The notes beneath the pieces are model-generated. The model did no database searches. It was given only the letters and a program-made list of their open reading frames with translations, and was not told the origin of the DNA. A stretch of 64,000 nt of DNA, from positions 1-64,000 of IMG/VR virus record IMGVR_UViG_3300037840_000227. One strand, 5' to 3'. Origin of the DNA: a virus. Made by a program: the position numbers and the translations under genes. Position 1 is the stretch's first letter; the number at the start of each line of letters is the position of its first letter. This document shows positions 1,671-22,777 of the stretch, in pieces.

Positions 1671-3568
1671 GGCTGTTGTGGGCAGCATTATTCGCAGGGT
1701 TAATGCTGTGCGCTGCAGCGCAAGCCCAATTCCTTTTGCCCGTATCATCACAACAAACGGATTGTTCCACCGCCGAAGCGATGCTCGCTCGGCCCTCATT
1801 CACTGGGCTAACAAAGACGCAGCAGCAGGCCTATAAGAACCTCGTCTGCCCACTCGTAACCTCCGGCACTTGGGCGAAGCTCGATGCATTCTATGCTTTT
1901 GGCCTCGCGCCAACCGCAGCCTTCGCCGAGGCAAATCTCGTTAGCTCCAGCTACACCCTCACCGTCACCGGCACTGAGACGTTTGTCCCTAATGTCTGTG
2001 TCTACGGCGATAATTCAACTGGCTGGCTGAACACCTCATTCACACCGAGCACCGCTGGTGGCCACATGACGGCCAATAGCGGCAATTATAGTGTTTATGT
2101 TCTTAACAATCGCACAGCGGGGGAAAGCGGCTGGGCGGCAATAGGGACTGCAATTGGCTCTGGTTCTGCAACCAGCGTGATCTATCCGTATTATTCAGTC
2201 GGCTCTGGCAGCTTTGGCCGCATCGGCAATATCACAAACGTCGCTTATGCGGGGATCACTTCTGGCCGGGGGCTGCTCAGCATCAGCAGAACGTCAAGTT
2301 CGCAGGTTGATTATTACATCAATGCTGTTGATGTCGCGACTAATGCTTCAGACACGGCGGGCTCGCTTGAGAGTGATACCGTCGTCATTGGAGCTAATCG
2401 CACTGGCGGCGCGGTCTCCAACTTTAGTGGCGACTGTATTGCGGCGGCTTTCTTCGGAGGAGGACTGACTCAAGCAGACGAAACGGCGCTCCAGAGCGCA
2501 ATAAGCGGCGTTCAGCCGCTTACTGTTTCTAATCAAACCCCTGGCGGCGTCCAGTTCTGGGGCTTCACGACAAACAAATTCTACGACAACACTTTTGCAT
2601 CTGTCGATCTGAACCAGACAAATAATCCAGGGTACAACTGGTATCTCACGCCTTGGCGCGGCACATCCGCCTTCCCGTCGACTTGGGTGACGGTGACAGG
2701 CGGCGTCATGACAATCAATCAGCTTGCGCTTGCCACGAATGAGTACGCCGTCGTTTGGAGCGCTGCCGATACAGCCCTTGCCTACTTCACCGGAACAATT
2801 TCCGGCTCTGTCCTGACTGTTTCAGCAGTCTCCTCTGGCACGATCGCCAACGGGATGATCGTCGTCGGCGGAAGCGTCACTCAAGGCACAACCATCACCT
2901 CGCTCGGAACAGGCACGGGTGGAACTGGCACCTACAATCTCTCAGCGTCTTCTACAGTGTCGAGCGGCGAGGCGATGGTGGGCGGTACCGTCATAGGGAC
3001 TCTTTTCCCTCCCGGCGGCTACTACGAGGCATGCTACAACGGCAATCCAACTTCGGCTCCCGCCTCTGGTTCTGGCTCGGATAACCTCGCTTGGTGGATG
3101 GAGGATGTCAGCGTTTTGCTAGGGAAAAATTTCGTCGCTTCAAGTCTGGGCATCGCCTCCACCGGCATCGAAGTCGATCACGAAGAGTCAATCATTGGAA
3201 CAGTCGGCGCTCCGACATATACCTTCAACGAGCATGATTGGACTAACACCAACGGCGGCGGCGGCGGCACTGACAACTACGTGCAAAAAAACGGATCATC
3301 TGCTGCCAACATCCATTGTTGGGGGACACTTTGGATACTGTCGACGCAGAATGGAGGCACCGGCAAGTTCGCCTATTTCCTCGATGGCGTGCCACAAGGC
3401 GCTCTAGGCGTTGTGACCTACACCGCTACAACTGGCTCAACGCCTGCGTCGACGCCAAGCAACCCGAATGGCCAGTTTTTCGCCGGCGAAAGCGATAGCT
3501 TTGTCCTTAGCCTTCAGGGTGGCCTCAACTGGCCGATGAACGTCTCCAGCGTGGGAGTATGGCACTGA
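1667..3568 (+). CDS. Signal-peptide protein with LamG/ConA-like and GH16-like domains
   Basis: [20 protein letters not shown]|Q signal; GGYYEA...WW...IEVDHEE (ExDxxE) motif; fibre-like [20 protein letters not shown]...[10 protein letters not shown] segment. Confidence 0.75.
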
Positions 3569-4848
3569 TGATTGGGATCACACATACCTTGCGCTGCGTT
3601 GCGACTACGCTCATCGCGCTTTCCCTCGCGGCCATCTTCGCCAACCCGGCGCTGGCCGACTTCCCGGGCCCTGTCTATCCATTCCTTCCAAATGGGAATT
3701 ACGGAGCGATTAACTTAATAGGAAGCGTCTCGAGCAATATTCCGATTCCCGGCGGAGCCAACAGCACGATCTTCATCGTCACCAATCTTGGCGCAACGAT
3801 CGCGTATACGACGCTTGGAACCTCGAACGCCGTCACGGCTAACACAACCGTTGATCCAATCCAGCCTGGCGCCAACCGCTGCTTCAGTCGCGGCGCCTAC
3901 ACCTATATCGCGGGATACTCTACCAATAGCGAGACGCTGACGATCGTTGGGGGAACTGGCCAGTGCCAGGATACTTCTGGCGCTCCCGCCACCGGGAGCG
4001 CCACGGCGGCAAATCAGACGAATGGAAGTCAGTTGACAATGATTGTCGACGGGCTTGGTAATGTCATCGGGTCCACCGCGAATGCTCTAAATGTGGACTG
4101 CATCGCCGGATGTAGTGGGGGCGGCGGAGGCGGAGGTGGCGCTGTCACAGCAGCGCTCGGTTCCTACGCTGCGGGCTTCAGCCCGGACATCGGCAACTCC
4201 GCGACGCCGACGGCGGCCTGGATAGGTAGCGGAACACCGACGGTTCTCGGCACCAATCAGGGCATCTACAATCAGCTCGTTGCGCTGAACACTGCCTTCA
4301 ACGCCTCGCTGACGCCGAACGCCGCGCTGACCTCATGGCAGACCTCACCGAATGCCGGCTTCGGTATTCTTTGCCAATATCTCAGCGCCAACCCATCCGC
4401 GCCAGCGAACACCAACACGATCGGCCTTCGTTGCGATCCGAACGGGCTCCTTAAGATTGCGCCGACAGCCTCGACTAATGGCGGCGCGCTGAATAGCGCT
4501 AGCTTCATTATCACCAACAATACGACGGCGGTTGTTGTCCGGAATGCGCCGGCGACACTCTATTCGATCAGCGCCTACACATCGACTGCTGCGACTGAGG
4601 GTGTCTGGCTCAAGCTTTATGACACGGCGACAACCTTCACATGCGGGACGGGGACGCCGGTCAGGCGCGATGCAGTTCCGGCAGCCTCGACGCCGGCGAA
4701 CCTCTCGGGCGCCACGATCGATCTCGGCCCAGCCGGCCGATACTTCACCACCGGCATTACGGCCTGCGTAACAGTCAATGTTGCGGACTCAGACGCTACT
4801 GCCCCGCCGGCGGCAAACTACGGCGCCGCCAACTTTGTGATCCAATAA
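3568..4848 (+). CDS. Signal-peptide virion-appendage-like protein
   Basis: TGATG overlap; hydrophobic leader ending NPALA|D; ATAANQTNGSQ motif; C-terminal jelly-roll-like WLKLYD.AT...GT.TP segment. Confidence 0.72.
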   Translation: MIGITHTLRCVATTLIALSLAAIFANPALADFPGPVYPFLPNGNYGAINLIGSVSSNIPIPGGANSTIFIVTNLGATIAYTTLGTSNAVTANTTVDPIQPGANRCFSRGAYTYIAGYSTNSETLTIVGGTGQCQDTSGAPATGSATAANQTNGSQLTMIVDGLGNVIGSTANALNVDCIAGCSGGGGGGGGAVTAALGSYAAGFSPDIGNSATPTAAWIGSGTPTVLGTNQGIYNQLVALNTAFNASLTPNAALTSWQTSPNAGFGILCQYLSANPSAPANTNTIGLRCDPNGLLKIAPTASTNGGALNSASFIITNNTTAVVVRNAPATLYSISAYTSTAATEGVWLKLYDTATTFTCGTGTPVRRDAVPAASTPANLSGATIDLGPAGRYFTTGITACVTVNVADSDATAPPAANYGAANFVIQ

Positions 4849-4860
4849 GGGCTGACTACA

Positions 4861-7578
4861 ATGAACCTCTCTTGGAAGATTCTCCGGGCGGCCATCGCGG
4901 CGCTTGCGTTTGTAGCTCTCGGATGCGGGATTGAGGCGGCCGGGGCCACCGGCACGCCAATCCTAAGCGGGCCGCCGTTGTCTGGCGTCGCCCTCGGCGC
5001 GGGGACGGACTTCACGTCGGCGACGAGTTCACTCTTCATCCCTAATAGCGTTTCACTTGGCATCGTCTCTCCATGGACGGTGGCATACGTCGTAAAAACG
5101 ACTGCTGCGCTTGCAACAGATCAAGTGTTTATTGCTCACACAGATTCGGCGAATCCGATCCTTACTAATGGAACAGTGGGGTTCTCGAATCATAACAGCC
5201 ATTTTGGTAGAAACACAACTTTCGAGAACGTTATCGAGCAGCCAACACAGTCTGGTTTTTGCGGCTCGCTATCTCTTTCATATCTTTGTACCCGCCTAGC
5301 CTGGATCAATGACGGCGCCAAGCACTCTGTCGTTGTGACATTCGTGGGCGGTTGCCAAACTATGTACATTGACGGGGTCATAAGGGACGCGCAGTGCGGC
5401 CTGACCTATTACCCAGGCGCCAATTATTGGGTTGTCGGGTTCCCCAATACGCCGACAACCATCGCGGACCTTCGCGTCTATAATCGCGCTCTGAGTCAGG
5501 CGGAGGCGACTCGACTCTCATCTCTTATCGCGCAAGGTCTCACAGCCAATAGCGGCTCTCTTCAAACCGGCTTGGCGGAATACTGGCCGATGGGCTCGGC
5601 GTGCCCCTGCACGGGCACGATCAATGCAAATGTTATGCAAACTGAGTCGACGGGCCCGACTGTCGCGATCACAACCCCGCTCAACGGCGGCACGATCACC
5701 GGCGCGGCGGTTACTGTCACCGCGACAGCAACCGATCCGATCGGTGTCAACAGCGTCCAGTTCCAGGTTGACGGGTCCAATGCTGGCGCGCTTCTGACTT
5801 CTGCACCGTATACGATATCATTCGATTCGACGAAGCTCGTCGATGGACCTGGCCACACGATTGTCGCGACCGCCACTAATGCTGGCGGGATCACCAGCAC
5901 ATCCCAGGTCAACGTTACTTCATCGAATGGTGTCAGCGAGCAGAACTGGTACTTCGCCGTCGCCGGCAGCGATTCTAACAACTGCAAGACGACAGGAACC
6001 GCCTGTAAGACCCTTGCCCACGTCGCCACTCTCACCATGCATGAGAGCGATCATGTGCTATTCAACGGCGGCGACACTTTCACCGGGTGCGTATCTCTGA
6101 ACGGCACGAACACTCTATCGAGGCCGCTATTTCCGGTCATCTTCGACAGCTACGGCACTGGCCCCGCGATCCTCACAACGCAAGGTTCAGGATGCACATC
6201 GGCTGATGGGCGTGTCGGTATAATTGACATCACGGCTGGAGCTCAAGGGATTCAGCTTAATGGCGTTCCCGGAACTTCCGGCCTCAAGCTCGTTTGCGAC
6301 AGCACCGGCGCGGCAGGCATCGGTGTCTACATTAGCAGTTACGGCGGGGCGACAAATTGGATCACGCTTAATGGCGTCGAGATCACTGGCCTGTGCCATG
6401 ACGGTATCAGCGCGAATTTTGACGCCGCCATCCTCGTTGATCCGACGAGCGGCAATCGAGTCGATAACGTCGCCCTGATCAACACGGTCATCCACGGTCC
6501 TTCGGGGCCAGCCGATCTTGTCGACAATGGGCTCTTTACATTTGGGCCGCAAACTGCGAACACCTACCGAGCGATACAAGGAAACTACATCTACAACATC
6601 GGCGGTCAGCCATCGAGCGCCAGCAGCGGCAATGGCTTGGCTATTTCCACCAATCAACCTCCGACTGCTCCACCGTTTTCGGGGAATGTCATTCACGATA
6701 CTGGCGCCAACGGAACGACCTGCGGCGGTCCTGTTCTCTTCGGCACGTTCTTCGCCGACAGTATCTACTGGTCACAGAACGAAGGCTATAATAGCATCCC
6801 ATACCCCACCTTTGTGAGCGGGTGTGATCATGATGGGATCGATTTTGACCTCGGCACGACAAACAGCACTGCCAAGTACAACTACATTCACAACACGTTT
6901 GGCGAAGGAATATACGCATTCGTCGAAGATGCGTACGGGCCGATCAACATCGGTTTTAATATCGTCGATGAGTCGGCGCAGACAGCGTCGAACACACAGT
7001 CAAACGCGATTGCTGTGGCTTGGGGCTATCCTGCGACTCCTGCGATAAATGTATTCAACAACTCAGTGACATGCCCCGGCAGTACTGCAGGATTCTGCTT
7101 TTTTCACGGGTTTACCGATACGAGCCTATTCCCTGGCGTGATCGCCAACAACATCTTCAATTCCTTGAATGGCAATTTCGTTTACTTGGAAGGTCTATCC
7201 TATCCAGGTCTCCACATGCTGAGCAATGATTACTACACGACGCACAGCACAAAGCTGTGGCGATTGGGGTATGCAACCTATGCGACGACGTTTGCCGCTT
7301 GGCAGGCAGTCGCTCCCGGCGGCGAGGTCGGCTCCATCACGACAAATCCAGCGTGGGTAGGGCCTACCGGAACGAATGTGACCTGCAACGCCACTGCTGG
7401 AACTACAGGGCCGCAGCCTTGTCCCGCCGGCTATGCTCTTAGCGGCGGCTCGCCTGCTCATAACACTGGAACCGATCTGACCTCCTACCTCGGCGCAGGA
7501 TGGGCGACGCGTGACTACTACGGAACGACGCTGCCGAGCGGCGGCGGGACGGGCTTCCCAATCGGAGCGGCAATATGA
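4861..7578 (+). CDS. Signal-peptide protein: LamG + bacterial Ig-like + right-handed beta-helix (pectin-lyase-like)
   Basis: N-terminal signal; IADLRVYNRALS (LamG); PTVAITTP...VQFQVDG...APY (Ig-like); GSDSN and DHDGIDFD...YNYIHN beta-helix motifs; many paired Cys. Confidence 0.8.
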   Translation: MNLSWKILRAAIAALAFVALGCGIEAAGATGTPILSGPPLSGVALGAGTDFTSATSSLFIPNSVSLGIVSPWTVAYVVKTTAALATDQVFIAHTDSANPILTNGTVGFSNHNSHFGRNTTFENVIEQPTQSGFCGSLSLSYLCTRLAWINDGAKHSVVVTFVGGCQTMYIDGVIRDAQCGLTYYPGANYWVVGFPNTPTTIADLRVYNRALSQAEATRLSSLIAQGLTANSGSLQTGLAEYWPMGSACPCTGTINANVMQTESTGPTVAITTPLNGGTITGAAVTVTATATDPIGVNSVQFQVDGSNAGALLTSAPYTISFDSTKLVDGPGHTIVATATNAGGITSTSQVNVTSSNGVSEQNWYFAVAGSDSNNCKTTGTACKTLAHVATLTMHESDHVLFNGGDTFTGCVSLNGTNTLSRPLFPVIFDSYGTGPAILTTQGSGCTSADGRVGIIDITAGAQGIQLNGVPGTSGLKLVCDSTGAAGIGVYISSYGGATNWITLNGVEITGLCHDGISANFDAAILVDPTSGNRVDNVALINTVIHGPSGPADLVDNGLFTFGPQTANTYRAIQGNYIYNIGGQPSSASSGNGLAISTNQPPTAPPFSGNVIHDTGANGTTCGGPVLFGTFFADSIYWSQNEGYNSIPYPTFVSGCDHDGIDFDLGTTNSTAKYNYIHNTFGEGIYAFVEDAYGPINIGFNIVDESAQTASNTQSNAIAVAWGYPATPAINVFNNSVTCPGSTAGFCFFHGFTDTSLFPGVIANNIFNSLNGNFVYLEGLSYPGLHMLSNDYYTTHSTKLWRLGYATYATTFAAWQAVAPGGEVGSITTNPAWVGPTGTNVTCNATAGTTGPQPCPAGYALSGGSPAHNTGTDLTSYLGAGWATRDYYGTTLPSGGGTGFPIGAAI

Positions 7579-7967
7579 GAACTCTCGTCATTCTCCTTCT
7601 GCTTTCCACCAGCGCCCTCGCGCAATCCGCGCCGGGAGTGATCAGTTCGTCGCCGATGCGTTGGCAGATGGGGCCGAAGGACTTTCCACTCCTCACCAAG
7701 GCTCTCTCAGTCCTAATGGAGGAGCGTACCCGCCTCGGTGACAAGGAAGGTCTTGCCCACTTGGAAGCGATGATTCCGGAGGCTGCTGGGACGCAACGTC
7801 CTAGTGGCATCCAAATCCCAGTCTTCATCCAAGCCCTAAGCCGCATCGCCACGCCCGGTTCGCCCTACTGCGAGCTTCTCCAGCGTCTCCAGCCAGCCGG
7901 TCCTGCAACGCCTACCGAACCGGCCCATGCTGCGGCATTGTGCGAGGGCCGCGCGCCGCCGCCATGA
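7575..7967 (+). CDS. Small secreted hypothetical protein
   Basis: MRTLVILLLLSTSALA|Q signal; ATGA overlaps on both sides. Confidence 0.7.
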   Translation: MRTLVILLLLSTSALAQSAPGVISSSPMRWQMGPKDFPLLTKALSVLMEERTRLGDKEGLAHLEAMIPEAAGTQRPSGIQIPVFIQALSRIATPGSPYCELLQRLQPAGPATPTEPAHAAALCEGRAPPP

Positions 7968-9856
7968 TACCTACGCTCGCGCGGCTTCTTCTCGCCTTCT
8001 GCGTCGCCGTCGCGTCGCCCGCGTTTGCCGATTCCATCACCACGACGGGCGTTGGGTCGATCGAAGCCGCCGCGCAGGTATGCGGTTCCCAAAAGACGGT
8101 TTTCATCACCTCGGGAACGACATGGACCGTTCCGAGCGATTGGTGCAGCACCAACACAGTTGTCGCGATTGGCGGCGGCGGCGGCGGCGGAGCGCCAATC
8201 AATGGGGCTGATACCGGCGGCGGCGGCGGTGCGGGAGCCTTTGCATTCGCAACGAATGTCGCGTTAACGCCTAGTTCGGTGATCCCGGTTCAGATCGGAA
8301 CCGGCGGCGCTGCTGGCGCTCCAGTTGGAGGAAGCGGCGGCAACGGAACCGACACGATATTCAATACCTCAACTATCATCGCTAAGGGCGGTCAGGGCGG
8401 AACGGGCAACCCGCTCACGCCAAATGGCGTAGGCGGCCTGGCCTCCGCCTCAGCGCCGACGACTGGCGCTCAGAACGGCGGCAATGGCGGCGTCAGCGGC
8501 ACTGGCAATGATGGCGGTGGCGGGGGCGGCGGCGCGGGCGGTCCGAATGGCGCAGGCGCCAATGGCGGCGCCACGAGCTCGAGCGGTAATAACGGCGGCT
8601 CTGGCGGCGGCGCTAGCGATGGCGGTTCGGTTGGCGGCAATGCAGCGTCGGGAAGTATTGGGGCCAACGGCGGCGCTGCCTTCGATGCAACGCTGGGGGG
8701 CGTTGGCGGCGGAGCGGGCCTCAACGGCGCGGCGGGTTCGCATGGCTCGGGCGGTGGTGGCGGCGGGGCATCGAATGGCAACGGCGGCAATGGCGGGGCA
8801 GGAATCGATTACATTCAGACTGCCGGCGGCGCTGTAGCGGGGCCGGGCGGCGGCGCGGGCGCGGGCGCGGGCGGACCGGGCAATGGCGGAACCGGCGGCC
8901 TCTATGGTGGCGGCGGCGGTGGCGGAGGCTGGTTCGAAGGCGCGGGCGGCGCTGGGGCCAATGGAATCATCATTGTCACTTACGGGACGCCAAATGCCTG
9001 TGGGGCGCCCATGTCGGCGCCGTCTCAAGCGGCTGGCCTGACAAAGCAGATCGACGATCAGTTCTGCCCGTCGACGACGCTCAACGCCACCAATTGGCTG
9101 CCGTATATGAACAACGCAGCCACCTTTGGACGGTGGACAAACGCCGGCAACCTGCCCAGCCCCTATTCAGCGGTCCAGAATACGGCCAGCCCCGGCTGCG
9201 CTTCGGCTGGATCGCAGCTCAACTGCGAATACGGCGATCCTTATCCTGCCGGCTATGGGACAAACAACGGCGATGGTTCTCACATGGTTATCCCCGGCAC
9301 ATCAACCGGGCTGCGCCTGATCGCCAACAATTCAAGCTCTCAGTACAACTCAGGCGCGAACCTCTATCCCTTCGCTAGCGCCTATATTACATCCGTCTGG
9401 CAATGCCCGTCGTCGGGCACATGCGTCATCCAGGTCAAGCAGAAGTTCTCGGACGTCAGTGGCGGCTTCTGGCCAACCCTCTGGTCCGACAATATGAGTG
9501 CGGAGGTTGATTTCAACGAGGGCGGCTTCCTCAACGGCGGCAGTTCGGCAAACGCCAACTTCGTCTTCGCCACTCACGTTTTTCCCAACGCTCAGTGCCT
9601 CGTCAACACCTCAACGAATATGTCGCTGGGGTATAATGTCTATCTCATCGTGATCATCCCCGGCACGTCAGTCACCACCTACCTCAACGGCGTGCAGATG
9701 TGTACCCAGACCTCCAGCGTGCCGACGGGGAACTTTACGCTGAGCGCCACGGCGACAGTGATGGGCATCAATGGGGCCGGCTACCATACCGATTGGGTCA
9801 GCGGAACTGTAACCATGGAGCAAGACATTGCGGAAGTGCAGGTCTGGCATAATTAG
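7964..9856 (+). CDS. Signal-peptide glycine-rich fibre-like protein with C-terminal GH16-like domain
   Basis: MIPTLARLLLAFCVAVASPAFA|D signal; TSGTTWTVP...IGGGGGG...GANGIIIVTY glycine-rich phage domain; GFWPTLW...EVDFNE GH16 motif. Confidence 0.8.
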   Translation: MIPTLARLLLAFCVAVASPAFADSITTTGVGSIEAAAQVCGSQKTVFITSGTTWTVPSDWCSTNTVVAIGGGGGGGAPINGADTGGGGGAGAFAFATNVALTPSSVIPVQIGTGGAAGAPVGGSGGNGTDTIFNTSTIIAKGGQGGTGNPLTPNGVGGLASASAPTTGAQNGGNGGVSGTGNDGGGGGGGAGGPNGAGANGGATSSSGNNGGSGGGASDGGSVGGNAASGSIGANGGAAFDATLGGVGGGAGLNGAAGSHGSGGGGGGASNGNGGNGGAGIDYIQTAGGAVAGPGGGAGAGAGGPGNGGTGGLYGGGGGGGGWFEGAGGAGANGIIIVTYGTPNACGAPMSAPSQAAGLTKQIDDQFCPSTTLNATNWLPYMNNAATFGRWTNAGNLPSPYSAVQNTASPGCASAGSQLNCEYGDPYPAGYGTNNGDGSHMVIPGTSTGLRLIANNSSSQYNSGANLYPFASAYITSVWQCPSSGTCVIQVKQKFSDVSGGFWPTLWSDNMSAEVDFNEGGFLNGGSSANANFVFATHVFPNAQCLVNTSTNMSLGYNVYLIVIIPGTSVTTYLNGVQMCTQTSSVPTGNFTLSATATVMGINGAGYHTDWVSGTVTMEQDIAEVQVWHN

Positions 9857-10094
9857 CGCGGCGCTCTTGCTGGCTCTCCCGGCGCTAGCCCAGCAGCGCC
9901 CGGACATCCAGCGCTATGCCGTGCTCGACAAGGTCGGCCAAGTCGTCTGGTTCATTGACAGCAACTTCCTGCCGCCATCACCGAAGGCCGGGTGGACCGT
10001 TCGCCTGGCGACGGCTGCCGATCTCGCCATCCCGCCGATCGCGCCCCCGTTCCATTCGCGCCTCGAACAGCAGCAATGGATGGCGGCGCATTGA
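9828..10094 (+). CDS. Small secreted hypothetical protein
   Basis: Hydrophobic leader ending LPALA|Q; start codon uncertain. Confidence 0.55.
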   Translation: MRKCRSGIISAALLLALPALAQQRPDIQRYAVLDKVGQVVWFIDSNFLPPSPKAGWTVRLATAADLAIPPIAPPFHSRLEQQQWMAAH

Positions 10095-10135: not shown

Positions 10136-10465
10136 ATGACCGAATATAATGGAGCGATCCCCGCTGGCGGCGCGATGGCGGTGTCTCCGCCAGGCGGCAA
10201 CGGCAGCCGCCGCCGGCTCAAGTATCAGAACAATGGGGTTTCCCTCATGCGGTTCTCGGCGACAACCGGCGTGCCGGCGAGCCTGACAGTTGGCCTCGCT
10301 GTGCCGGGGGGAAGCAACCAGGTCTACGAATGGCCGAGCCACATCGCCGCCGCCATCATTGGCGCAAGGGGCGCCTTGACGAGCCCGGACAATGGCGTGC
10401 CGACGGGACAGATTACGGTCTGGGGCCAGAATCCAGGCGATACCTGGTATGTCGAGGAGGAGTAA
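10136..10465 (+). CDS. Hypothetical beta-rich structural-type protein
   Basis: 109-aa ORF; its TAA stop lies inside the IS target-site duplication. Confidence 0.65.
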   Translation: MTEYNGAIPAGGAMAVSPPGGNGSRRRLKYQNNGVSLMRFSATTGVPASLTVGLAVPGGSNQVYEWPSHIAAAIIGARGALTSPDNGVPTGQITVWGQNPGDTWYVEEE

Positions 10466-10580
10466 TCCGGGTAGTGTCTCAGTTTCCGGAAGCGAACTTT
10501 ATGCTTAACAGCTGTCTCGAATTTAGGAGACAGCCTCCGAGTCGATATGCATACTAATTTGCCAGGGGAAAAATCACGGA

Positions 10581-10904
10581 TTGATCGTGGCAAACGATCC
10601 CGGTCCACAAGGGCATAAAGACGGGGATGCGAAGCCCGTCCGACGCGTTGGCCCCTTTCCCCCGCCGAGGACGCTCCCTGCTTTCCCGAACGCGATAAAA
10701 GTCAAAGGCAAAACCCCGAGGCATAAGGGATCGAGCGGGATGCGCCCCCGTTGGAAGGAGCCTGACGGAACTATCTACGAATGGGATAGTCAACATGGAA
10801 CAGTCGAAAAATATGACGCAGACGGTAACCACTTAGGAGAGTTTGATCAGTTTAATGGGAAACAAACGGGACCTGCAATTTCTACGAGGAGTGTAGAACC
10901 ATGA
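10581..10904 (+). CDS. Colicin E3/CdiA-type cytotoxic ribonuclease domain (stand-alone)
   Basis: KTP...RPRWKEPDGTIYEWDSQHGTVEKYD..GNHLGEFD...G.Q..PA...RSVEP matches the colicin E3 RNase (Cytotoxic) domain pattern; start may be GTG 10587. Confidence 0.85.
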   Translation: MIVANDPGPQGHKDGDAKPVRRVGPFPPPRTLPAFPNAIKVKGKTPRHKGSSGMRPRWKEPDGTIYEWDSQHGTVEKYDADGNHLGEFDQFNGKQTGPAISTRSVEP

Positions 10905-11146
10905 GCTACACACTTGCGCATCAATTAGTCGGGTATGATCCTGAAACTGAGCGTCTTGAGGTCCAATGGGAAATCCCCGAGAGTCTTATGGATAAGGTTC
11001 GAAGGCTGGTCGTAACAGACGAAGACGATCCCGATATTGTCGACGCTTATCCTGTCGACCCCACCGTGGCTCGCGATATCCTAGGAATGCTTCACAGCAA
11101 CGAACGTCGGCAACTCGACTATTTCCTGGAAGGCTTTCAGCGCTAA
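10901..11146 (+). CDS. Putative cognate immunity protein
   Basis: Small acidic 81-aa protein, ATGA-coupled to the toxin gene, ending DYFLE. Confidence 0.7.
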   Translation: MSYTLAHQLVGYDPETERLEVQWEIPESLMDKVRRLVVTDEDDPDIVDAYPVDPTVARDILGMLHSNERRQLDYFLEGFQR

Positions 11147-11149
11147 CTG

Positions 11150-11491
11150 CTATCGAATGCGCTTCGCTTTTTTAGCCTCGCGATAGCGTTCGTCGCGCGC
11201 ATCGAGAAGCGCGACAATATCATCCATGCCCCAAAGCCGATCAGAGACGCCAGCGGCCATCGCGGGCGTGACCCTCAGGCTCTTATGGATGCGGATGAAG
11301 TTGTAATAGAGGAAGTACAGCGCCAGAGAATGACAATGGTTCTCAATCTTCTTTGAGAATGCGTTCGTCAATCGGGTGAAGCGCCGCATGCCCATGCGCA
11401 TATTCAAGTTCTGACGCTCAACATGGCTTGTCGAGATATGCGCTTCATCGGGGTTGCCTTCGATTGGCGTCCTGATCGCGCCCGTGCCCAC
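11150..11491 (-). pseudogene. IS1-family transposase, C-terminal fragment only
   Basis: [34 protein letters not shown]...[18 protein letters not shown]; in-frame stop just upstream, N-terminal part missing. Confidence 0.85.
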
Positions 11492-11580
11492 CGGCGCTCA
11501 GGGCCATAACAGGAAGGCCCGTATCTGACCTTTGCCGTGGGGGCGGGACAGATACGGGCCTTGGTGGGCACGCCTTCTTA

Positions 11581-11693
11581 GGAGGCGTGGCCGAGCGGTT
11601 TAAGGCAGCGGTCTTTAAAACCGCCGGAGCTTGCCCTTCCGAAAGGAAGGGATAGACGGGCTTCCGTAGGTTCGAATCCTACCGCCTCCGCCA
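11581..11693 (+). tRNA. Ser-type tRNA with TTA anticodon (ochre suppressor-like) and 41-nt variable arm
   Basis: Acceptor GGAGGCG/CGCCTCC, G73, CCA; anticodon stem GCGGT/ACCGC, loop CTTTAAA; T arm GTAGG-TTCGAAT-CCTAC. Confidence 0.85.
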
Positions 11694-11699
11694 GTTTCC

Positions 11700-11740
11700 C
11701 GGCGCATCTTTTATTATAAAGGGTGCGCCGTTCTTTTTCT
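11700..11740 (+). terminator. Rho-independent terminator after the suppressor-like tRNA
   Basis: CGGCGCATCTTT...AAAGGGTGCGCCG hairpin followed by TTCTTTTTCT. Confidence 0.6.
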
Positions 11741-11972
11741 ATTTCTTATTCCAACGGCTTGCGGCGGCTTGCTTCGCTATCTCCATCCTTCTTTCCGGCG
11801 TCATCTTCGCGGCCCTCGCGGCGCCGCCTTTCTTGCCGAGCGCCTTAGCGCCGGGGTCTTTCCCGTCATCCGGCGACGTGTCGTCAACCTCTCCCGTCGC
11901 GATCTTGGCGATTAGGACGGCGCGGGCGTTTATGTCAGCGGGGCGGCGCTCGCCTTTAGGACCTCGGGGCAT
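11739..11972 (-). CDS. Small basic IS-associated protein
   Basis: MPRGPKGERRPAD...IATGE...LG.KGG.ARA.KMTPERR.EIA..AA..RW, typical of alphaproteobacterial IS passenger ORFs. Confidence 0.8.
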   Translation of the reverse strand: MPRGPKGERRPADINARAVLIAKIATGEVDDTSPDDGKDPGAKALGKKGGAARAAKMTPERRMEIAKQAAASRWNKK

Positions 11973-12259
11973 TAGATTTTCCGCTTTCCCGGTTTTCTGA
12001 CTGAACTCGGCTCAAGAGAGCCGTTCCGCATGGCCTCCTCGAATGCGCGTCTAAATTTCTCAGAATCTCTGCGGACCGGCAGTGGCTTGCCGTCCGGGCC
12101 TAGCTTGACGATTTCCGTTTGATCGCGACGACCGCAGAGATTTGGCCCGCGCGGACCGCGGCGCCACTCATCACCGATTCGATCGCCGATGGTTTCCGAC
12201 CTAGCGTCCGGCCATCGAAGTTTCCCTGACACATCCGCCTCATGCTTTCCGCCAAGCAT
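11972..12259 (-). CDS. Hypothetical IS passenger protein
   Basis: 95-aa ORF, TAATG-coupled to the downstream small protein. Confidence 0.45.
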   Translation of the reverse strand: MLGGKHEADVSGKLRWPDARSETIGDRIGDEWRRGPRGPNLCGRRDQTEIVKLGPDGKPLPVRRDSEKFRRAFEEAMRNGSLEPSSVRKPGKRKI

Positions 12260-12408
12260 ATAGGCGACGAGCGCCGGAGGCGAGAGCTAGTCAAGCTGGA
12301 TTATTTTTCAAACTGAGACACTACCGTAATCCGCTACCCCTAGCGCGTTTCTGAAATTCGTGATTAAAGAGGGGCGGACTCAGCCTTGCCCGTGGGATGG
12401 GGGAGATT

Positions 12409-12944: not shown

Positions 12945-15674
12945 ATGGCCGACGAGCAGCAGACGCTTGCTGATAGTGTGCCCCAGTGGGGCAGCATGTC
13001 CCTTGATGAGATAGCCAAGCATCTCGCTGGGCTCCCCAAACAAAATCGTGATGACATTGTCGAGGCGGCTTACCACGCCACGGCGGAACGTAAATGGATT
13101 CCTAACACCGGCGCTCAACTCGACGCATACTTCAATAAAGCCGATGTATTACTTTATGGCGGCGCGGCAGGTGGCGGTAAACTGCTTGATATCAATGAGT
13201 TACTGCCAACACCGCATGGTTGGGTGCGGATGGGCGATGTTGCGATCGGCGACATTCTCTTTGATCAGGCCGGGTCCCGGTGCAGCGTTACGGCAGTTTC
13301 TCCTGTCAAATCAGCGAAGACATATCGCCTAACCTTTGACGATGGAACGGAAGTAACCTGCTGCGCCGATCATCTCTGGCTTACCTACGACGCTAAAGAG
13401 CTTGGCCAGCTTCTCAAGAAAACCGATGAGTGGCGGAGTCGGCGGCGCGCGGCTCGGCCATCAAGAGCCAAGGGCATCAAAAGCGAAAAATTTCGACTGT
13501 CAATCTCGGCGAGAAACTCCACGTTAGCGAAATCGACGCCAGCTCCAACTGGCTCGATCAGGACTACTCAGCAGATCGTCGATACCCTCATCGTCAAGAG
13601 AGGCCGTCGCAATCACGCCGTTCCGGTTGCTGGTGCGATAGAGCTGCCGGCTGCCGACCTTTCTTTAGATCCATATATCTTAGGCGCATGGCTCGGCGAC
13701 GGGACGGCCATAAGTGGTGGGTTTACTGGCGTGGATGACTTCATTTGGCGGGAGATAGAACGCGCGGGATTTGTCGTTACTCACGCAGCCGGAAAAGCTA
13801 GCGCTCATCACATCAGGGGACTCGTCCCATTCCTTCGTCGTCTTGGCGTCTTGGGCAATAAGCATGTTCCCCCGGCTTATCTCCGAGGTTCTATGGCGCA
13901 GCGCTTGGCCCTTCTACAGGGCCTCATGGATACGGATGGCCACGCCGCACTTGATGGTGGGTGTGAGTTCGACAACACAAATCTTAGTCTCGCTGAGGCC
14001 GTTTATGAGTTGGTGGCTAGCCTCGGCATCAAGGCAACAATCAATGAAGGTGTGGCGACGCTTTATGGCCGTGCTCTTGGGCCGAGATGGCGCGTTAAGT
14101 TCACGACCGATGTCCCGGTTTTCCGGCTTCCGCGTAAACGTGCGAGGCAAAAAGCAAAGGTGCGTCAAGTCGCAAGATTTCGTTACATCCGCGAGGCGAT
14201 CGAGGTGGACCCGGTTCCCATGCGGTGCATCTCTGTAGACAGTCCGACTAGGCTATATTTATGTACGAAATCATTTATCCCGACTCATAACAGCCAGTTA
14301 ATACTTGGGCTTGCTTTCTGCGAACACAAGCGGTCGCTTATCATGCGACAGGAATTCTCTGCATTAACAACGCTCACACAGCAGGCGATCAAGATAAACG
14401 GGACGAAGCAAGGGTATAATGGGTCAAACCCTCCTAGTATAAAGACGTCTGATGGAAGATTTATTCAGTTTAGTGGAGAACAGATTGAAAAGTTCCAAGG
14501 TGCAGATTTCGATTTAAAGGGGTTCGATGAGGCCGTACATCTCTCCGAGGAAACCATTCGTCTTAACCTCGGGTGGCTCCGTACTGCGGAGATCGGGCAG
14601 CGCACGCGAGCCGTTTTGGCCACAAATCCGCCGACGGACTCCAGGGGCGACTGGATAATTCCTATGTTCGGCCCGTGGCTTGACATCAACCATCCAAATC
14701 CGGCCCAGCCAGGCGAATTGCGATGGGTTGCCGTCGACCCGGACGGCCGGGATTTTTGGACCGAGGGGCCAGAACCATACCTATTTCCTGGCGAACGAAT
14801 TCCGGTCATCCCGAAATCAAGAACGTTCATCCCAGCCAAGCTCTCTGAGAATCCTTATTACGTACAGAGCGGCTATCAGAAAGAACTCGACGCTCTTCCA
14901 GAGCCGTATCGCTCTGCCTACCGCGACGGCAACTTCATGGCCGCGAGGAGCGATCAGGATAATCAAGTCATCCCCACTCAGTGGGTGCTCGAGGCACAAA
15001 AGCGCTGGAAGAAATCCGGGGGCGCCGAATTGATGATGAGCGCTATGGGCATTGACGTCGGGCAGGGCGGGATCGATCGCATAGTAATCGCTCGCCGGCA
15101 TGGGGAATGGTATGCGCCACTGATTGTTGTCTCCGGCAAGGATGCGCCGGACGGTTCTAAACAGGCGGCGCTGATTGTCGAAAATCGTCGCGATGGCTGT
15201 AGTGTGATTGTTGATGTCGGCGGCGGCTATGGCGGTGACTGTGTCGGGCGCCTCCAAGATAACAAGATCACGCCGGTTCGCTTCAACGGCTCTAGCGGCT
15301 CAACCAGTCGGGCCAAGGATGGCTCCGGCCGCCTCTTCGAGAATCGGCGCGCTGAGGCATGGTGGCGCTTCCGCGAGGCGCTTAATCCTGATCAGGCCGG
15401 CGGCTCAATCATTGCCCTCCCAGATGATTCAGAACTGCGGTCCGAATTGACCGCACCAACCTTCAAAAGCGAAATGCTGAAGATCCAAATCGAGGATAAG
15501 AAGGACATTAAAAAGAGGTTAGGCCATTCCCCGGACAAAGCCGACGCCGTGGTGATGGCCTGGGCGCCGGGCGAGACTGCGATTCGCCGCCAGCGCTATT
15601 CTGGCTTTGGCGGTCCAGTTGAAATGCCGTCGCGAACAAACTTGGGATATTCCGATATGAAGAAGAGGATTTGA
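12945..15674 (+). CDS. terL: Terminase large subunit with intein
   Basis: Walker A YGGAAGGGK|S split by intein; Walker B GFDEA; ATNPP; RNase H-like GIDVGQGG.D and SPDKADA motifs. Confidence 0.93.
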   Translation: MADEQQTLADSVPQWGSMSLDEIAKHLAGLPKQNRDDIVEAAYHATAERKWIPNTGAQLDAYFNKADVLLYGGAAGGGKLLDINELLPTPHGWVRMGDVAIGDILFDQAGSRCSVTAVSPVKSAKTYRLTFDDGTEVTCCADHLWLTYDAKELGQLLKKTDEWRSRRRAARPSRAKGIKSEKFRLSISARNSTLAKSTPAPTGSIRTTQQIVDTLIVKRGRRNHAVPVAGAIELPAADLSLDPYILGAWLGDGTAISGGFTGVDDFIWREIERAGFVVTHAAGKASAHHIRGLVPFLRRLGVLGNKHVPPAYLRGSMAQRLALLQGLMDTDGHAALDGGCEFDNTNLSLAEAVYELVASLGIKATINEGVATLYGRALGPRWRVKFTTDVPVFRLPRKRARQKAKVRQVARFRYIREAIEVDPVPMRCISVDSPTRLYLCTKSFIPTHNSQLILGLAFCEHKRSLIMRQEFSALTTLTQQAIKINGTKQGYNGSNPPSIKTSDGRFIQFSGEQIEKFQGADFDLKGFDEAVHLSEETIRLNLGWLRTAEIGQRTRAVLATNPPTDSRGDWIIPMFGPWLDINHPNPAQPGELRWVAVDPDGRDFWTEGPEPYLFPGERIPVIPKSRTFIPAKLSENPYYVQSGYQKELDALPEPYRSAYRDGNFMAARSDQDNQVIPTQWVLEAQKRWKKSGGAELMMSAMGIDVGQGGIDRIVIARRHGEWYAPLIVVSGKDAPDGSKQAALIVENRRDGCSVIVDVGGGYGGDCVGRLQDNKITPVRFNGSSGSTSRAKDGSGRLFENRRAEAWWRFREALNPDQAGGSIIALPDDSELRSELTAPTFKSEMLKIQIEDKKDIKKRLGHSPDKADAVVMAWAPGETAIRRQRYSGFGGPVEMPSRTNLGYSDMKKRI
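13182..14291 (+). mobile_element. Class 3-type intein with LAGLIDADG homing endonuclease, in TerL Walker A
   Basis: Starts LLDINELLPTPHGW, ends SFIPTHN|S; blocks LGAWLGDG and LLQGLMDTDG; W (DHLW), C (MRCI), T (PTHN) triplet. Confidence 0.88.
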
Positions 15675-15675: not shown

Positions 15676-15885
15676 ATGGCCGACGAGCGCTATCCTCACC
15701 AGCGAATGGTTGAACCTGTTCCAGCGCCTAGCCGCAATGAGGCAAAAGATGGTAAGCCATCTTCTGAAATGGAGAAGGAAGTGAACCTCGCGTTGCTCGA
15801 GGCCGACATTGCGGAGAAAGACCGCAAGCATGGCGATCGAACCAATGTGGCGTATCAATGGATCAAATATCCATTTCGGAGATAG
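15676..15885 (+). CDS. Hypothetical protein
   Basis: 69-aa ORF with GAGGA SD immediately after terL. Confidence 0.6.
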   Translation: MADERYPHQRMVEPVPAPSRNEAKDGKPSSEMEKEVNLALLEADIAEKDRKHGDRTNVAYQWIKYPFRR

Positions 15886-15887
15886 TC

Positions 15888-16118
15888 ATGGCCAATCTCT
15901 TCAAGCCGCCGAGCCCGCCGCAGGTTGCCGTTGCGCCGCCGATGCCCGATGCGAACTCGCCATCCGTCCTCGAGGCGCAGAACCAGGCCGCCGCGGCCGC
16001 GATGGCGCGCGCCGGGCGGGCGTCGACAATAATCGGGGCTCAAAGCAAGAATGCGCCCAGCCAAGCGCCGGTGGCGCAGGATGCTTACGCGGCGACTCGC
16101 TTGGGTGCGTCACAATAG
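15888..16118 (+). CDS. Small Pro/Ala-rich virion protein preceding the portal
   Basis: MANLFKPPSPPQ...PMPD...AGRASTI...TRLG; position typical of T7/BPP-1-like head modules. Confidence 0.7.
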   Translation: MANLFKPPSPPQVAVAPPMPDANSPSVLEAQNQAAAAAMARAGRASTIIGAQSKNAPSQAPVAQDAYAATRLGASQ

Positions 16119-16126
16119 GGGTTTCC

Positions 16127-16774
16127 GTGGCTCATCCGCACCTCATTGACATGACGGGGACGAAAGTCGGCCGCCTAACCGTGTTTGGGCGCGCTGGGAA
16201 TCATCCCAGCGGCGGTGCGACTTGGTGGTGCGATTGTGAATGCGGCAAAATGGTTGAAGTGCGCGGCGCAGACCTGAGGAATGAGAACGTGCGCTCTTGC
16301 GGGTGTTTGCATATCGAGCAGGCCACCCAGCATCAGCGCGCGGTTTTGACGCCGAAGGCCATCAAGCACGGGGCCTACCGGACACCGGAATACCAGCTCT
16401 GGGCGAATATGAAGGATCGCTGCAATAATCCTAATAACAAGAATTTCAGCCACTATGGCGGCCGCGGCGTCAGAGTTTGTCCGCAATGGGAAAGTTCCTT
16501 CGAGGTATTTCTTGCGGACATGGGCCCGCGCCCATCCTCCAAGCATTCGGTAGACCGCTACCCGGATAAGAATGGCGATTATCAACCAGGGAATGTCCGG
16601 TGGGCGACTCAGATTGAGCAGGCTAACAATAAGCGCAATACCAGAAAGACAGTATTCAGGGGCAACGAGATGACCTGGGCTGAGGCTTATAGGCTCGCCT
16701 CGCCAGCTTTTTCCTATCAGACATTTTGCTCCCGCATGGTGAGCGGGTGGCCCGTGGAGAAGGCGTTGTCATGA
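16127..16774 (+). CDS. HNH-type homing endonuclease
   Basis: G.KVGRLTV...WWCDCECG...SCGC; W.NMKDRC...YGGRG; SVDR...GDY.PGNVRWAT. Confidence 0.8.
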   Translation: MAHPHLIDMTGTKVGRLTVFGRAGNHPSGGATWWCDCECGKMVEVRGADLRNENVRSCGCLHIEQATQHQRAVLTPKAIKHGAYRTPEYQLWANMKDRCNNPNNKNFSHYGGRGVRVCPQWESSFEVFLADMGPRPSSKHSVDRYPDKNGDYQPGNVRWATQIEQANNKRNTRKTVFRGNEMTWAEAYRLASPAFSYQTFCSRMVSGWPVEKALS

Positions 16775-20898: not shown

Positions 20899-20973
20899 GC
20901 CGCTTAAACTTTGATGGTGAAGCCCGGTCCTGTAAACCGGCGGAACGGTGTTCGAGTCACCGAAGCGGCCCCA
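20899..20973 (+). tRNA. tRNA-Thr(TGT)
   Basis: GCCGCTT/AAGCGGC, loop CCTGTAA (C33), CCA. Confidence 0.75.
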
Positions 20974-20978
20974 TATTT

Positions 20979-21054
20979 GCTGCCTTAGCTCATCAGGTAG
21001 AGCGCCGCTCTCGTAAGGCGGAGGCGCCCGGATCATGGCCGGGAGGCAGCTCCA
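20979..21054 (+). tRNA. tRNA-Thr(CGT)
   Basis: GCTGCCT/AGGCAGC, loop CTCGTAA, CCA. Confidence 0.8.
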
Positions 21055-21059
21055 GTTTC

Positions 21060-21133
21060 GCCCTTGTCCTTCAACGACAGGAGAGCGCTTTGGTATAGCG
21101 TCAATCGAGGTTTGATTCCTCGCAGGGGCACCA
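21060..21133 (+). tRNA. tRNA-Thr(GGT)
   Basis: GCCCTTG/CAGGGGC, loop TTGGTAT, ACCA. Confidence 0.75.
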
Positions 21134-21138
21134 TCTTT

Positions 21139-21212
21139 GGCGCTGTAGCCCAATTGGTAGAGGCATCTCGCTCAGACCGAGAAGGATCCGAGTTCGAATC
21201 TCGGCAGCGCTA
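21139..21212 (+). tRNA. tRNA-Leu(CAG), short variable loop
   Basis: GGCGCTG/CAGCGCT, loop CTCAGAC, no encoded CCA. Confidence 0.85.
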
Positions 21213-21213
21213 C

Positions 21214-21290
21214 GCGGGTGTAGGCAAATCGGCAAAGCCGCCTGCCTCAAAATCAGGTGTTTCGAGATTCGAGTTCTCGCATCCGCACCA
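21214..21290 (+). tRNA. tRNA-Leu(CAA), short variable loop
   Basis: GCGGGTG/CATCCGC, loop CTCAAAA, ACCA. Confidence 0.8.
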
Positions 21291-21295
21291 AATTC

Positions 21296-21369
21296 GGCCG
21301 CCTAGGCCAACGGTAGAGTCGGGAGATTTAAATCCTCCTTCAGTGCGCGTTCGAATCGCGCGGCGGCTA
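21296..21369 (+). tRNA. tRNA-Leu(TAA), short variable loop
   Basis: GGCCGCC/GGCGGCT, loop TTTAAAT; anticodon register slightly ambiguous. Confidence 0.7.
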
Positions 21370-21370
21370 C

Positions 21371-21445
21371 GGGCGGTTAGCTCAGAGGAAGAGCGGGGGT
21401 CCTACAAACCTCAGGTCGGGATTTCGAAATTCTCACCGCCTACCA
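21371..21445 (+). tRNA. tRNA-Val(TAC)
   Basis: GGGCGGT/ACCGCCT, loop CCTACAA (C33), ACCA. Confidence 0.85.
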
Positions 21446-21450
21446 TTCAC

Positions 21451-21524
21451 GGTCACGTAGCTCAGTGGCAGAGCCGGCGCTCGATAAGCGTCTGACGCGA
21501 GTTCGATTCTCGACGTGACTTCCA
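21451..21524 (+). tRNA. tRNA-Ile(GAT)
   Basis: GGTCACG/CGTGACT, loop TCGATAA (C33), CCA. Confidence 0.8.
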
Positions 21525-21571
21525 ATAAGGGAAGGTTCCAGCCATGTGCGAATATCTCAAACGGGTTCTCT

Positions 21572-21666
21572 GGACCCGTGACCGGAGTAGGCCGATCGGC
21601 CCTGACTTTTAATCAGGTGTGGACTTCGGTCCACCATCGCGAGTTCGAATCTCGCCGGGTTCTCCA
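21572..21666 (+). tRNA. tRNA-Lys(TTT) with long variable arm
   Basis: GGACCCG/CGGGTTC, loop CTTTTAA, V-arm GTGGAC-TTCG-GTCCAC. Confidence 0.8.
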
Positions 21667-21669
21667 CTT

Positions 21670-21755
21670 GGACCGGTAGTCAAGCGGCCAACGACAAGAG
21701 ACTCTTAATCTCTCGACGAAAGTCTTCGGGAGTTCGAATCTCCCCCGGTTCGCCA
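21670..21755 (+). tRNA. tRNA-Lys(CTT) with variable arm
   Basis: GGACCGG/CCGGTTC, G73, loop CTCTTAA, V-arm GAC-GAAA-GTC. Confidence 0.85.
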
Positions 21756-21759
21756 ACAC

Positions 21760-21835
21760 GGCGTCGTACCCCAAAGGCAGAGGGAGAGCGTTGAGAACGC
21801 TTTCAGTGGACGTTCAAGTCGTCCCGACGCCACCA
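21760..21835 (+). tRNA. tRNA-Leu(GAG), short variable loop
   Basis: GGCGTCG/CGACGCC, loop TTGAGAA, ACCA. Confidence 0.85.
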
Positions 21836-21839
21836 GTCG

Positions 21840-21914
21840 GGTCCGTTACGCATCCGGTGAAGCGATCCGCCTGTCGAGCGGATGAGGCGGGATCGTCCCC
21901 CGCACGGACCGCCA
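21840..21914 (+). tRNA. tRNA-Asp(GTC)
   Basis: GGTCCGT/ACGGACC, G73, loop CTGTCGA. Confidence 0.8.
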
Positions 21915-21915
21915 T

Positions 21916-21993: not shown

Positions 21994-22020
21994 GTTAGTC
22001 GCAGCAGCAGGAGAAGCAGA

Positions 22021-22334: not shown

Positions 22335-22346
22335 GTGAGACGTCCC

Positions 22347-22773: not shown

Positions 22774-22777
22774 ACAT

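Follow-up and report, generated by a model that had tools for sequence, protein, structure and literature searches.

What a tRNA that should read a stop codon does in a phage that keeps the standard genetic code is the question raised by a gene at positions 11581-11693 of the 64,000-nucleotide stretch of DNA analysed here (the window), which is the first part of a complete 98,782-bp IMG/VR virus record (IMGVR_UViG_3300037840_000227; 127-bp direct terminal repeat, 59% G+C). The answer favoured by the present analysis, at a probability of about 0.55, is that this gene encodes an intact serine-type, stop-reading tRNA, carried as cargo by an IS1-family transposon inserted in the phage genome, and that the tRNA would be charged by seryl-tRNA synthetase (SerRS) and act as an ochre suppressor causing low-level read-through. 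The tRNA gene itself comprises the following parts:

11581-11693, plus strand: serine-type class II tRNA with anticodon UUA (anticodon 11615-11617, variable region 11626-11665, G73 at 11690, CCA at 11691-11693).
11634-11651, plus strand: inner 7-bp GAAA-capped hairpin, the extension of the variable arm, absent from relatives with variable arms of 16-17 nt.
11700-11740, plus strand: intrinsic-terminator-like hairpin (11700-11730) and T run, 3' of the tRNA.

The anatomy of this tRNA could be read directly. The acceptor stem of 7 bp (GGAGGCG/CGCCTCC) is followed by U8 and G9, a D stem of 3 bp (GCC/GGC) that includes C11-G24, an anticodon stem of 5 bp (GCGGU/ACCGC) closing the 7-nt loop CUUUAAA, and a T arm GUAGG-UUCGAAU-CCUAC with a 5-bp stem (GTAGG/CCTAC). 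The Rfam tRNA model (RF00005) covered 11581-11690 on the plus strand end to end (model positions 1-71), with 57.9 bits against a gathering score of 29. The anticodon UUA, flanked in its 7-nt loop by U33 and by a purine as residue 37, is that of an ochre suppressor; UUA anticodons read UAA and, via wobble, UAG, and the A36-A37-A38 run is the context for the i6A37 modification, which favours decoding of codons that start with U. SerRS recognizes a long variable arm, G73 and pairs in the acceptor and D stems, and ignores the anticodon. All of the serine identity elements considered were found in the tRNA body, namely a long paired variable arm, G73, G1-C72, G2-C71, A3-U70 and C11-G24, and its 5' half was 87-91% identical to annotated tRNA-Ser genes of many phages, the change relative to a typical tRNA-Ser(UGA) of phages or prophages that shares its anticodon stem being essentially G35U. 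The selenocysteine tRNA, which has a UCA anticodon and a 13-bp 8/5 branch, differs from this gene in both respects (anticodon UUA, 7/5 branch). An earlier description made from the letters alone (the sequence-only reading) had claimed a canonical 7/5 cloverleaf with G73, CCA, the CUUUAAA loop and a terminator, which both the inspection of the sequence and the Rfam score bore out, and a serine identity, which at the level of the body is likewise supported by the features just given.

Homologues were sought by exact-pattern scans, the bacterial set being retrieved with a pattern that required the TTA anticodon. Ser-type tRNA(UUA) genes were found in two other, unrelated viral contigs, G001 (60.9 kb, with a 17-nt variable arm) and G002 (24.9 kb; L080:3248-3310), and in about 15 bacterial assemblies, mostly of Alphaproteobacteria (Parvibaculum, Hyphomicrobium, Stellaceae). 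When 15 Ser-type copies from the three viral contigs and from alphaproteobacterial metagenome-assembled genomes (MAGs) were aligned, their conservation by compensatory change was directly visible: 98.6% of the cloverleaf cells were standard pairs, and 11 pairs had changed on both sides (four in the acceptor stem, one in the D stem, three in the T stem and three of the five at the base of the variable arm), a count reached by none of 500 shuffles. G73 was kept in 14 of the 15 copies, and the features needed for charging and decoding were conserved in the family as a whole (the 7/5 branch, CCA, the T-loop and a discriminator, G73 or A73, that fits the body type). The compensatory changes uphold the argument of the sequence-only reading that intact stems speak against simple decay, and the homologues to which it had looked for support do carry UUA in independent assemblies, with covariation in the variable arm.

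The variable region of the phage copy is 40 nt long, or 41 nt counting the preceding C, and it folds, as had been described from the letters alone, into an 8-bp outer stem (three of its pairs being G-U), a 5-nt bulge on the 3' side and a perfect 7-bp inner stem capped by GAAA, with an energy of -21.1 kcal/mol (z = -3.6) that none of 200 shuffled sequences equalled. Most copies have a region of 16-17 nt; longer ones were found in L174 (22 nt), L165 (24 nt), L261 (26 nt) and L191 (31 nt), and the damaged copy L200 has one of about 50 nt. The closest relatives of the phage copy by flanking genes are L165 and L191, both with enlarged arms that share a CCCT..GAAAG core. The enlargement in these two, together with the 16-17 nt of most copies, argues that the giant arm arose within one lineage, by extension at a tolerant site, and is not a family trait. 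A search for the origin of the inner hairpin revealed no second copy of it in the window or in IMG/VR.

Upstream of the tRNA, about 100 nt were conserved in architecture across the family, and they formed a structured leader with these elements:

11476-11580, plus strand: structured leader of the tRNA, from an alignment of nine sequences.
11477-11482/11493-11498, plus strand: helix P0, 6 bp, five pairs changed on both sides.
11484-11492/11563-11571, plus strand: helix P1, 9 bp, three pairs changed on both sides.
11514-11530/11546-11562, plus strand: helix P2, 17 bp, nine pairs changed on both sides.

The covariation of the leader was evident from the nine aligned sequences, in which 17 of 32 pairs had changed on both sides, a score that none of 500 shuffles reached, and 81.8% of the helix cells were paired, against 33-43% when the partners were slid. 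Since its G-U pairs lie on the tRNA strand, the leader is a plus-strand RNA, that is, a pre-tRNA leader. The loop of P0 supplies the 5' strand of P1, and therefore the two helices are alternatives or form a pseudoknot. A second leader type (L147, L152, L166, L191) has a different sequence and, as judged by eye, the same layout of an outer helix and a long hairpin. A comparison of the leader with Rfam gave nothing above noise, neither a ribozyme nor any other family.

The 3' tail of the leader (about 11569-11577) is complementary to the 5' acceptor strand of the tRNA. Where the leader passes into the tRNA (11569-11589, of which the last 9 nt belong to the tRNA), the sequence is a near-perfect palindrome, CACGCCTTC-TTA-GGAGGCGTG, and similar complementarity was observed in relatives. 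Before processing, such a palindrome would keep the 5' acceptor strand of the precursor sequestered; in the fold predicted for leader plus tRNA (minimum free energy -117 kcal/mol, z = -5.1), the tail forms an 8-bp hairpin that displaces the acceptor stem. The anti-acceptor complementarity had a median of -9.2 kcal/mol in 15 family members versus -3.9 kcal/mol in 31 phage tRNA-Ser(UGA) controls (Mann-Whitney p = 6e-6), a difference that is suggestive only, the family sequences being related and GC-rich. From these structures we infer that the leader may regulate the maturation of the tRNA.

The association of this leader with the UUA anticodon was also seen in scans that were blind to the anticodon. 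When viral sequences were scanned with an NNN anticodon, the leader was found at none of 38 tRNA-Ser(UGA) genes and the sole leader-bearing gene was UUA, and a leader-only scan of metagenomes gave 120 hits, 117 of which were chance matches in GC-rich coding DNA; the three genuine ones, a Ser-type, a Leu-type and a decayed tRNA, all had the CTTTAAA loop.

Moreover, the same leader was found before tRNAs with another body. The genes in L187/L212, L205 and L310 share it with the Ser-type genes (L187/L212 also having matching inverted repeats), and their anticodon and T arms match those of the Ser-type genes, as does the acceptor stem in L187 and L205; their bodies have a Leu-type D arm, a Leu-type variable arm and A73. 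The discriminator thus switches with the body type, which argues that the synthetase matters and that the selected property is the reading of UAA and not a particular amino acid. Acidobacteriota and other phyla yielded about 40 more tRNA(UUA) genes of the Leu type, often with a zinc-finger variant of the transposase family described below next to them. In six acidobacterial MAG loci (L145, L161, L171, L141, L150, L199), the Leu-type tRNA(UUA) is preceded by a GC-rich hairpin and by the motif GGACCACCA, which is conserved and looks like the 3' end of a further tRNA-like unit, and the IS1-like transposase of these loci has an N-terminal zinc finger and lies on the same strand as the tRNA.

Leader and tRNA lie within a 1,856-bp element (10470-12325), directly after the phage gene 10136-10465, whose boundaries and contents are as follows:

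10462-10469, unstranded: left target-site duplication, 8 bp, GTAATCCG, which holds the TAA stop of the phage gene 10136-10465; the same eight bases stand at both ends.
10470-10485, plus strand: left terminal inverted repeat, GGTAGTGTCTCAGTTT, 16 nt, 100% complementary to the right repeat.
10581-10904, plus strand: protein of 107 residues with a colicin-E3-type cytotoxic rRNase domain (PF09000, E 6.7e-28, 97.3 bits).
10901-11146, plus strand: putative immunity protein of 81 residues, DUF7683 (PF24731, E 2.3e-9, 37.9 bits), its start overlapping the toxin stop.
11150-11491, minus strand: 5'-truncated IS1-like transposase, the C-terminal ~98 of ~274 residues (tblastn).
11739-11972, minus strand: small basic 'KGG' protein of 77 residues, a core gene of the insertion sequence (IS) family, adjoining the repeat distal to the transposase.
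11972-12259, minus strand: open reading frame (ORF) of 95 residues inside the element, with no family match.
12310-12325, minus strand: right terminal inverted repeat, AAACTGAGACACTACC, pairing with the left repeat at 16 of 16 positions.
12326-12333, unstranded: right target-site duplication, GTAATCCG, identical to the left copy.

The boundaries of the element were directly observed as perfect 16-bp inverted repeats flanked by an 8-bp target duplication, as in IS1-type elements. Its transposase fragment was 52-78% identical (tblastn) to the 3' part of full-length transposases near tRNA(UUA) in 24 bacterial loci. The full-length transposase of L144 scored 33.7 bits on Pfam DDE_Tnp_IS1 (cut-off 24.1) and 63.6 bits on NCBIfam transpos_IS1 (cut-off 100), and the window fragment 22.4 bits on the Pfam model, under its cut-off; because the transposase is truncated, the phage element is non-autonomous. 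The same repeats, with 0-3 mismatches, bound bacterial elements of 2.4-3.2 kb, including L144 and L165 with tRNA(UUA), in which the order is repeat, KGG gene, tRNA(UUA) with its leader on the opposite strand, a 262-residue ORF, the full-length 274-residue transposase and repeat; the 262-residue ORF matched nothing in Pfam or NCBIfam and only 'hypothetical' Atlas clusters. In the genome scan, a transposase homologue was present within the fetched 8 kb of 24 of about 59 tRNA-like hits. Conversely, 25 IS copies were retrieved from IMG/VR by means of the transposase, nearly all with the repeats and the KGG gene, which also stands beside the inverted repeat in most of these viral copies and in the bacterial elements. 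The possibility that every IS copy carries a tRNA was rejected, given that among the 25 viral copies tRNA(UUA) was found in G002 only, and an odd class I tRNA in one other (L372). Therefore the tRNA is an optional cargo, and the IS a carrier with a variable cargo bay. The tRNA of L372 (3814-3886) is irregular and class-I-sized, with an imperfect anticodon stem and the apparent anticodon ACU. In G001, an ORF of 115 residues with a weakly GIY-YIG-like C-terminus (22268-22615) lies between the tRNA and the KGG gene.

The rRNase-domain protein aligned with the PDB colicin E3 chain 1e44_B (E 2.3e-10) over the YEWDSQHG..E core, and the D..H..E catalytic core is kept; the ORF downstream matches DUF7683 and not the E3 immunity family, and it is its position that suggests immunity. 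The toxin/immunity segment showed no DNA homology to the bacterial tRNA elements, and the phage element has gained this pair. A functional link between tRNA and toxin was considered, and none was found. A transposase in need of UAA read-through was likewise considered, on account of TAA codons that in several bacterial elements stand in frame shortly before the transposase ATG, and was rejected: the stretch taken for a 'conserved peptide' reads as a promoter (TTGACG-17-TATATT) followed by a Shine-Dalgarno sequence, one element has an intervening TGA, and the acidobacterial copies show none of this arrangement.

No match to the empty insertion site of the transposon was found in IMG/VR. The nearest phage relative, G003 (87 kb, complete, portal protein 77% identical), has no tRNA at all; it has neither tRNA(UUA) nor the array of 28 tRNA genes at 20899-25405 of the window (ARAGORN; 20 confirmed by Rfam), which is inserted relative to G003, and both are therefore accessory.

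Several observations weigh against a working suppressor. ARAGORN, one of the programs by which the sequence-only reading had proposed to check the gene (tRNAscan-SE/ARAGORN), gave no call for 11581-11693, presumably owing to the very long variable region, whereas it called the normal-sized homologue of G001 'tRNA-Stop (tta)'. A variable arm of 15 bp is without tested precedent and could impair the fit of the phage copy to SerRS, EF-Tu or the ribosome. The G002 copy has lost its 3' part from within the T arm onward, with no remainder found nearby, and shows that loss of the tRNA is tolerated. Since the bacterial retrieval was constrained to UUA, it is only the anticodon-blind tests, which are smaller, that speak for an invariant anticodon. 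Finally, no read-through target was found among the TAA-ended genes of the phage with in-frame downstream genes. The next gene was in frame for five of 23 TAA-ended genes, compared with two of 113 for the other stops, but in the sole case comparable base by base (26730-27590 and 27615-28250) the tRNA-less G003 has the same TAA, spacer and in-frame ATG; in three other cases the two halves matched G003 only as separate hits, and the remaining ones had no comparable match there. Given the arrangement in G003, the enrichment was discounted and programmed TAA read-through fusions were rejected.

Some of these points are shared by the alternative that survives best, in which the tRNA is a disabled or neutral passenger that came with a chance landing of the transposon, its 24-nt extension of the variable arm making it a poor substrate, and does nothing for the phage. 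The absence of the tRNA from the nearest relative, the truncated transposase, the truncated copy in G002, the giant arm unique to the phage copy and the lack of a read-through target would all fit such a passenger. Nevertheless, the gene has kept every stem, G73, CCA and the U33/A37 context of its anticodon loop, and its leader and terminator are likewise intact; the extension forms a perfect coaxial hairpin (-21 kcal/mol) and not random damage; and enlargement of the variable arm, to 24-31 nt, is also found in its closest relatives (L165, L191 and L261), so that the lineage tolerates extension. The passenger explanation is for these reasons considered unlikely, albeit the most serious of the rivals.

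A somewhat weaker case can be made for a leader-tRNA transcript that acts as a non-decoding RNA, the anticodon being incidental; it could have a regulatory role, offer a nuclease or toxin a tRNA-like handle or decoy, or serve as a switch that depends on processing. The leader is as conserved as the tRNA, covaries as strongly and is predicted to sequester the 5' acceptor strand, and for some irregular tRNAs near toxin-antitoxin or transposon genes it has been argued that they are unused in translation (Mukai et al. 2017, PMC5389517). However, the full set of charging and decoding features is conserved, and the switch of the discriminator with the change from a Ser to a Leu body is sensible only if the synthetase matters, which makes such an RNA improbable. 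The sequence-only reading had itself offered a decoy or antitoxin-like RNA beside serine insertion at stop codons. That part was not supported: the neighbouring toxin is of the colicin E3 type, which cuts 16S rRNA and not tRNA and has its own protein immunity partner, and the tRNA family occurs in many elements without any such toxin. The serine-type ochre suppressor that it had proposed was retained at the sequence level. The transposon, the conserved leader and the fact that the giant arm is particular to the phage copy had escaped it.

Reassignment of TAA (or TAG) to serine by the phage, with the tRNA as a dedicated decoder as in TAG- or TGA-recoded phages, would agree with the suppressor tRNAs of other phages, which go with recoding (Borges et al., bioRxiv 10.1101/2021.08.26.457843), but it was effectively refuted. 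Four genomes (the phage, G001, G002 and G003) were examined with a codon-usage gene caller under four codes. The coding density of the phage fell from 0.834 under the standard code (table 11) to 0.818 when TAA was read as sense, and the total coding score fell with it, so that density and score were both best under the standard code, as they were in the other three genomes. TAA is the stop of 23 of 136 phage genes (17%), large structural ones among them, and of 24 of 123 genes (20%) in G003, a genome without any tRNA; where orthologues exist, alignments of the phage with G003 end at TAA. The in-frame recoded stops and the higher density under an alternative code that characterize stop-recoded phages were absent. 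The absence of recoding is therefore a direct observation: the phage has the standard code, in which TAA is a true stop. The idea that the TTA arose from an ordinary tRNA-Ser(UGA) through a sequencing or assembly error, which the single base between TTA and TGA would make easy, or through a one-off mutation, as the sequence-only reading had feared, is negligible and, on the sequences compared, excluded by the small anticodon-blind samples and by the same UUA loop in independent assemblies (two viral contigs of IMG/VR, about 15 bacterial MAGs and metagenome contigs), with a shared leader that ordinary tRNA-Ser(UGA) genes do not have.

For the suppressor that is preferred here, we infer the following course of charging and decoding. 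The tRNA gene would be transcribed with its structured leader of about 100 nt and cut by RNase P at +1, a maturation that the leader possibly controls. SerRS would charge the tRNA, because the enzyme reads the long variable arm, G73 and the acceptor and D-stem pairs and ignores the anticodon. The UUA anticodon would then pair with UAA and, by wobble of U34, probably more weakly with UAG, and in competition with the release factors a fraction of the ribosomes would insert serine and read through. The effect would be low-level read-through rather than a new code, because the phage keeps the standard code and TAA is a genuine stop.

As to who would benefit, the absence of the tRNA from the nearest phage and the clean-looking insertion argue that its selective value lies with the mobile cassette and not with an essential phage function. 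The favoured interpretation is that the cassette of leader and UAA-reading tRNA, or its bacterial carriers, would profit, and that its presence in the phage is recent and accessory. A bolder proposal, put forward tentatively and as less likely than the suppressor activity itself, is that leader and UAA-reading tRNA constitute a self-contained, regulated module for read-through, carried between bacteria and phages by IS1-type transposons, in which the mutually exclusive helices and the anti-acceptor tail would gate maturation and so restrict read-through to certain conditions, serine and leucine would be interchangeable and UAA suppression would be what is selected. If this were true, suppression might favour the element, or whatever carries it, over AT-richer competitors, or unlock genes interrupted by UAA. 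The leader turns regulated maturation of a suppressor into a directly testable hypothesis.

Other features of the phage were noted in passing. In the 28-tRNA array, Ser, Tyr and Trp tRNAs were not detected, and its five 'Leu' tRNAs are all 75-77 nt, class-I-sized and without the long variable arm expected of bacterial tRNA-Leu. Two adjacent tRNAs in it (21572-21666 and 21670-21755) are class II, with long arms in the ARAGORN structures and lysine anticodons, UUU (with U73) and CUU (with G73); they are irregular and could mis-decode Lys codons. Stop usage, from crude gene calls, is regionally skewed, the small genes at ~80-98.7 kb being nearly all TGA-ended and the structural module (26-60 kb) having TAA, TAG and TGA stops mixed. 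Upstream of the transposon (237-10094 of the window), large ORFs follow one another on the plus strand; they have Big_7, ConA-like lectin and glycine-rich domains, resemble tail-fibre or adhesin genes and show no DNA similarity to G003. The large terminase subunit (12945-15674, 909 residues) contains a LAGLIDADG homing-endonuclease domain, probably an intein, and the terminase gene is followed by an HNH endonuclease gene at ~15809-16774.

Natural nonsense suppressors have usually been seen as laboratory mutants or as decoders of recoded phages. Laboratory serine-inserting suppressors derived from tRNA-Ser include the amber suppressor supD/serU of E. coli and psu of phage T4, from T4 tRNA-Ser. 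They resemble the tRNA described here in having a tRNA-Ser body with a single anticodon change, which SerRS ignores, so that serine is inserted at stops. They differ in being laboratory-selected mutants, whereas the phage tRNA belongs to a natural conserved family, has its own structured leader, is borne by a transposon and has a variable arm more than twice the normal length. Among phages, TAG- or TGA-recoded gut phages carry suppressor tRNAs (Borges et al., bioRxiv 10.1101/2021.08.26.457843), and an orphan tRNA Sup:UUA has been annotated in phage G, its role unexplained (PMC12484599); the likeness consists in a phage-encoded tRNA with a stop-reading anticodon. In contrast to the recoded phages, no recoding was found here, and the gene lies outside the 28-tRNA array of the phage, arrived on an IS1-type transposon and has bacterial homologues.

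The allo-tRNAs and irregular suppressor tRNAs of Acidobacteria have serine identity and non-serine anticodons, UUA included, and are often found near toxin-antitoxin and transposon genes (PMC5389517); several allo-tRNAs were shown to insert serine in E. coli (Mukai et al. 2017, NAR, PMC5389517). Allo-tRNAs are defined by an 8/4 or 9/3 acceptor/T branch, whereas the phage tRNA has a canonical 7/5 cloverleaf with all of these pairs standard across the family, and therefore it is not an allo-tRNA. With IS1-family elements that carry passenger genes, the transposon shares short GGT-initiated repeats, an 8-bp duplication and a DDE transposase similar to that of IS1; unlike IS1, its family has a divergent single-ORF transposase under the NCBIfam IS1 cut-off, the separate small 'KGG' gene and a variable cargo bay, and the phage copy is non-autonomous. 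Theta ribozymes, which are hepatitis delta virus (HDV)-like, are linked to suppressor tRNAs in gut phages (PMC10879173). They resemble the present case in that a structured RNA is attached to a phage suppressor tRNA gene, and differ from it in that the phage leader matches no Rfam ribozyme or other family and lies 5' of the tRNA; a catalytic role is not proposed for it.

A limited literature search revealed no description of a canonical suppressor tRNA that is borne by a transposon and has a structured leader. Relative to all of these systems, what is distinctive here is a canonical Ser tRNA with an ochre anticodon conserved by compensatory evolution, with its own covarying leader and a body that can be swapped for a Leu one, carried as transposon cargo in a phage with the standard code. 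If such a tRNA were active, UAA read-through would be a horizontally mobile trait, with a bearing on how stop-codon reassignment starts, on the manipulation of host translation by mobile elements and on how far a class II variable arm (~15 bp) can be stretched and still work, and it would provide synthetic biology with a ready-made natural ochre suppressor.

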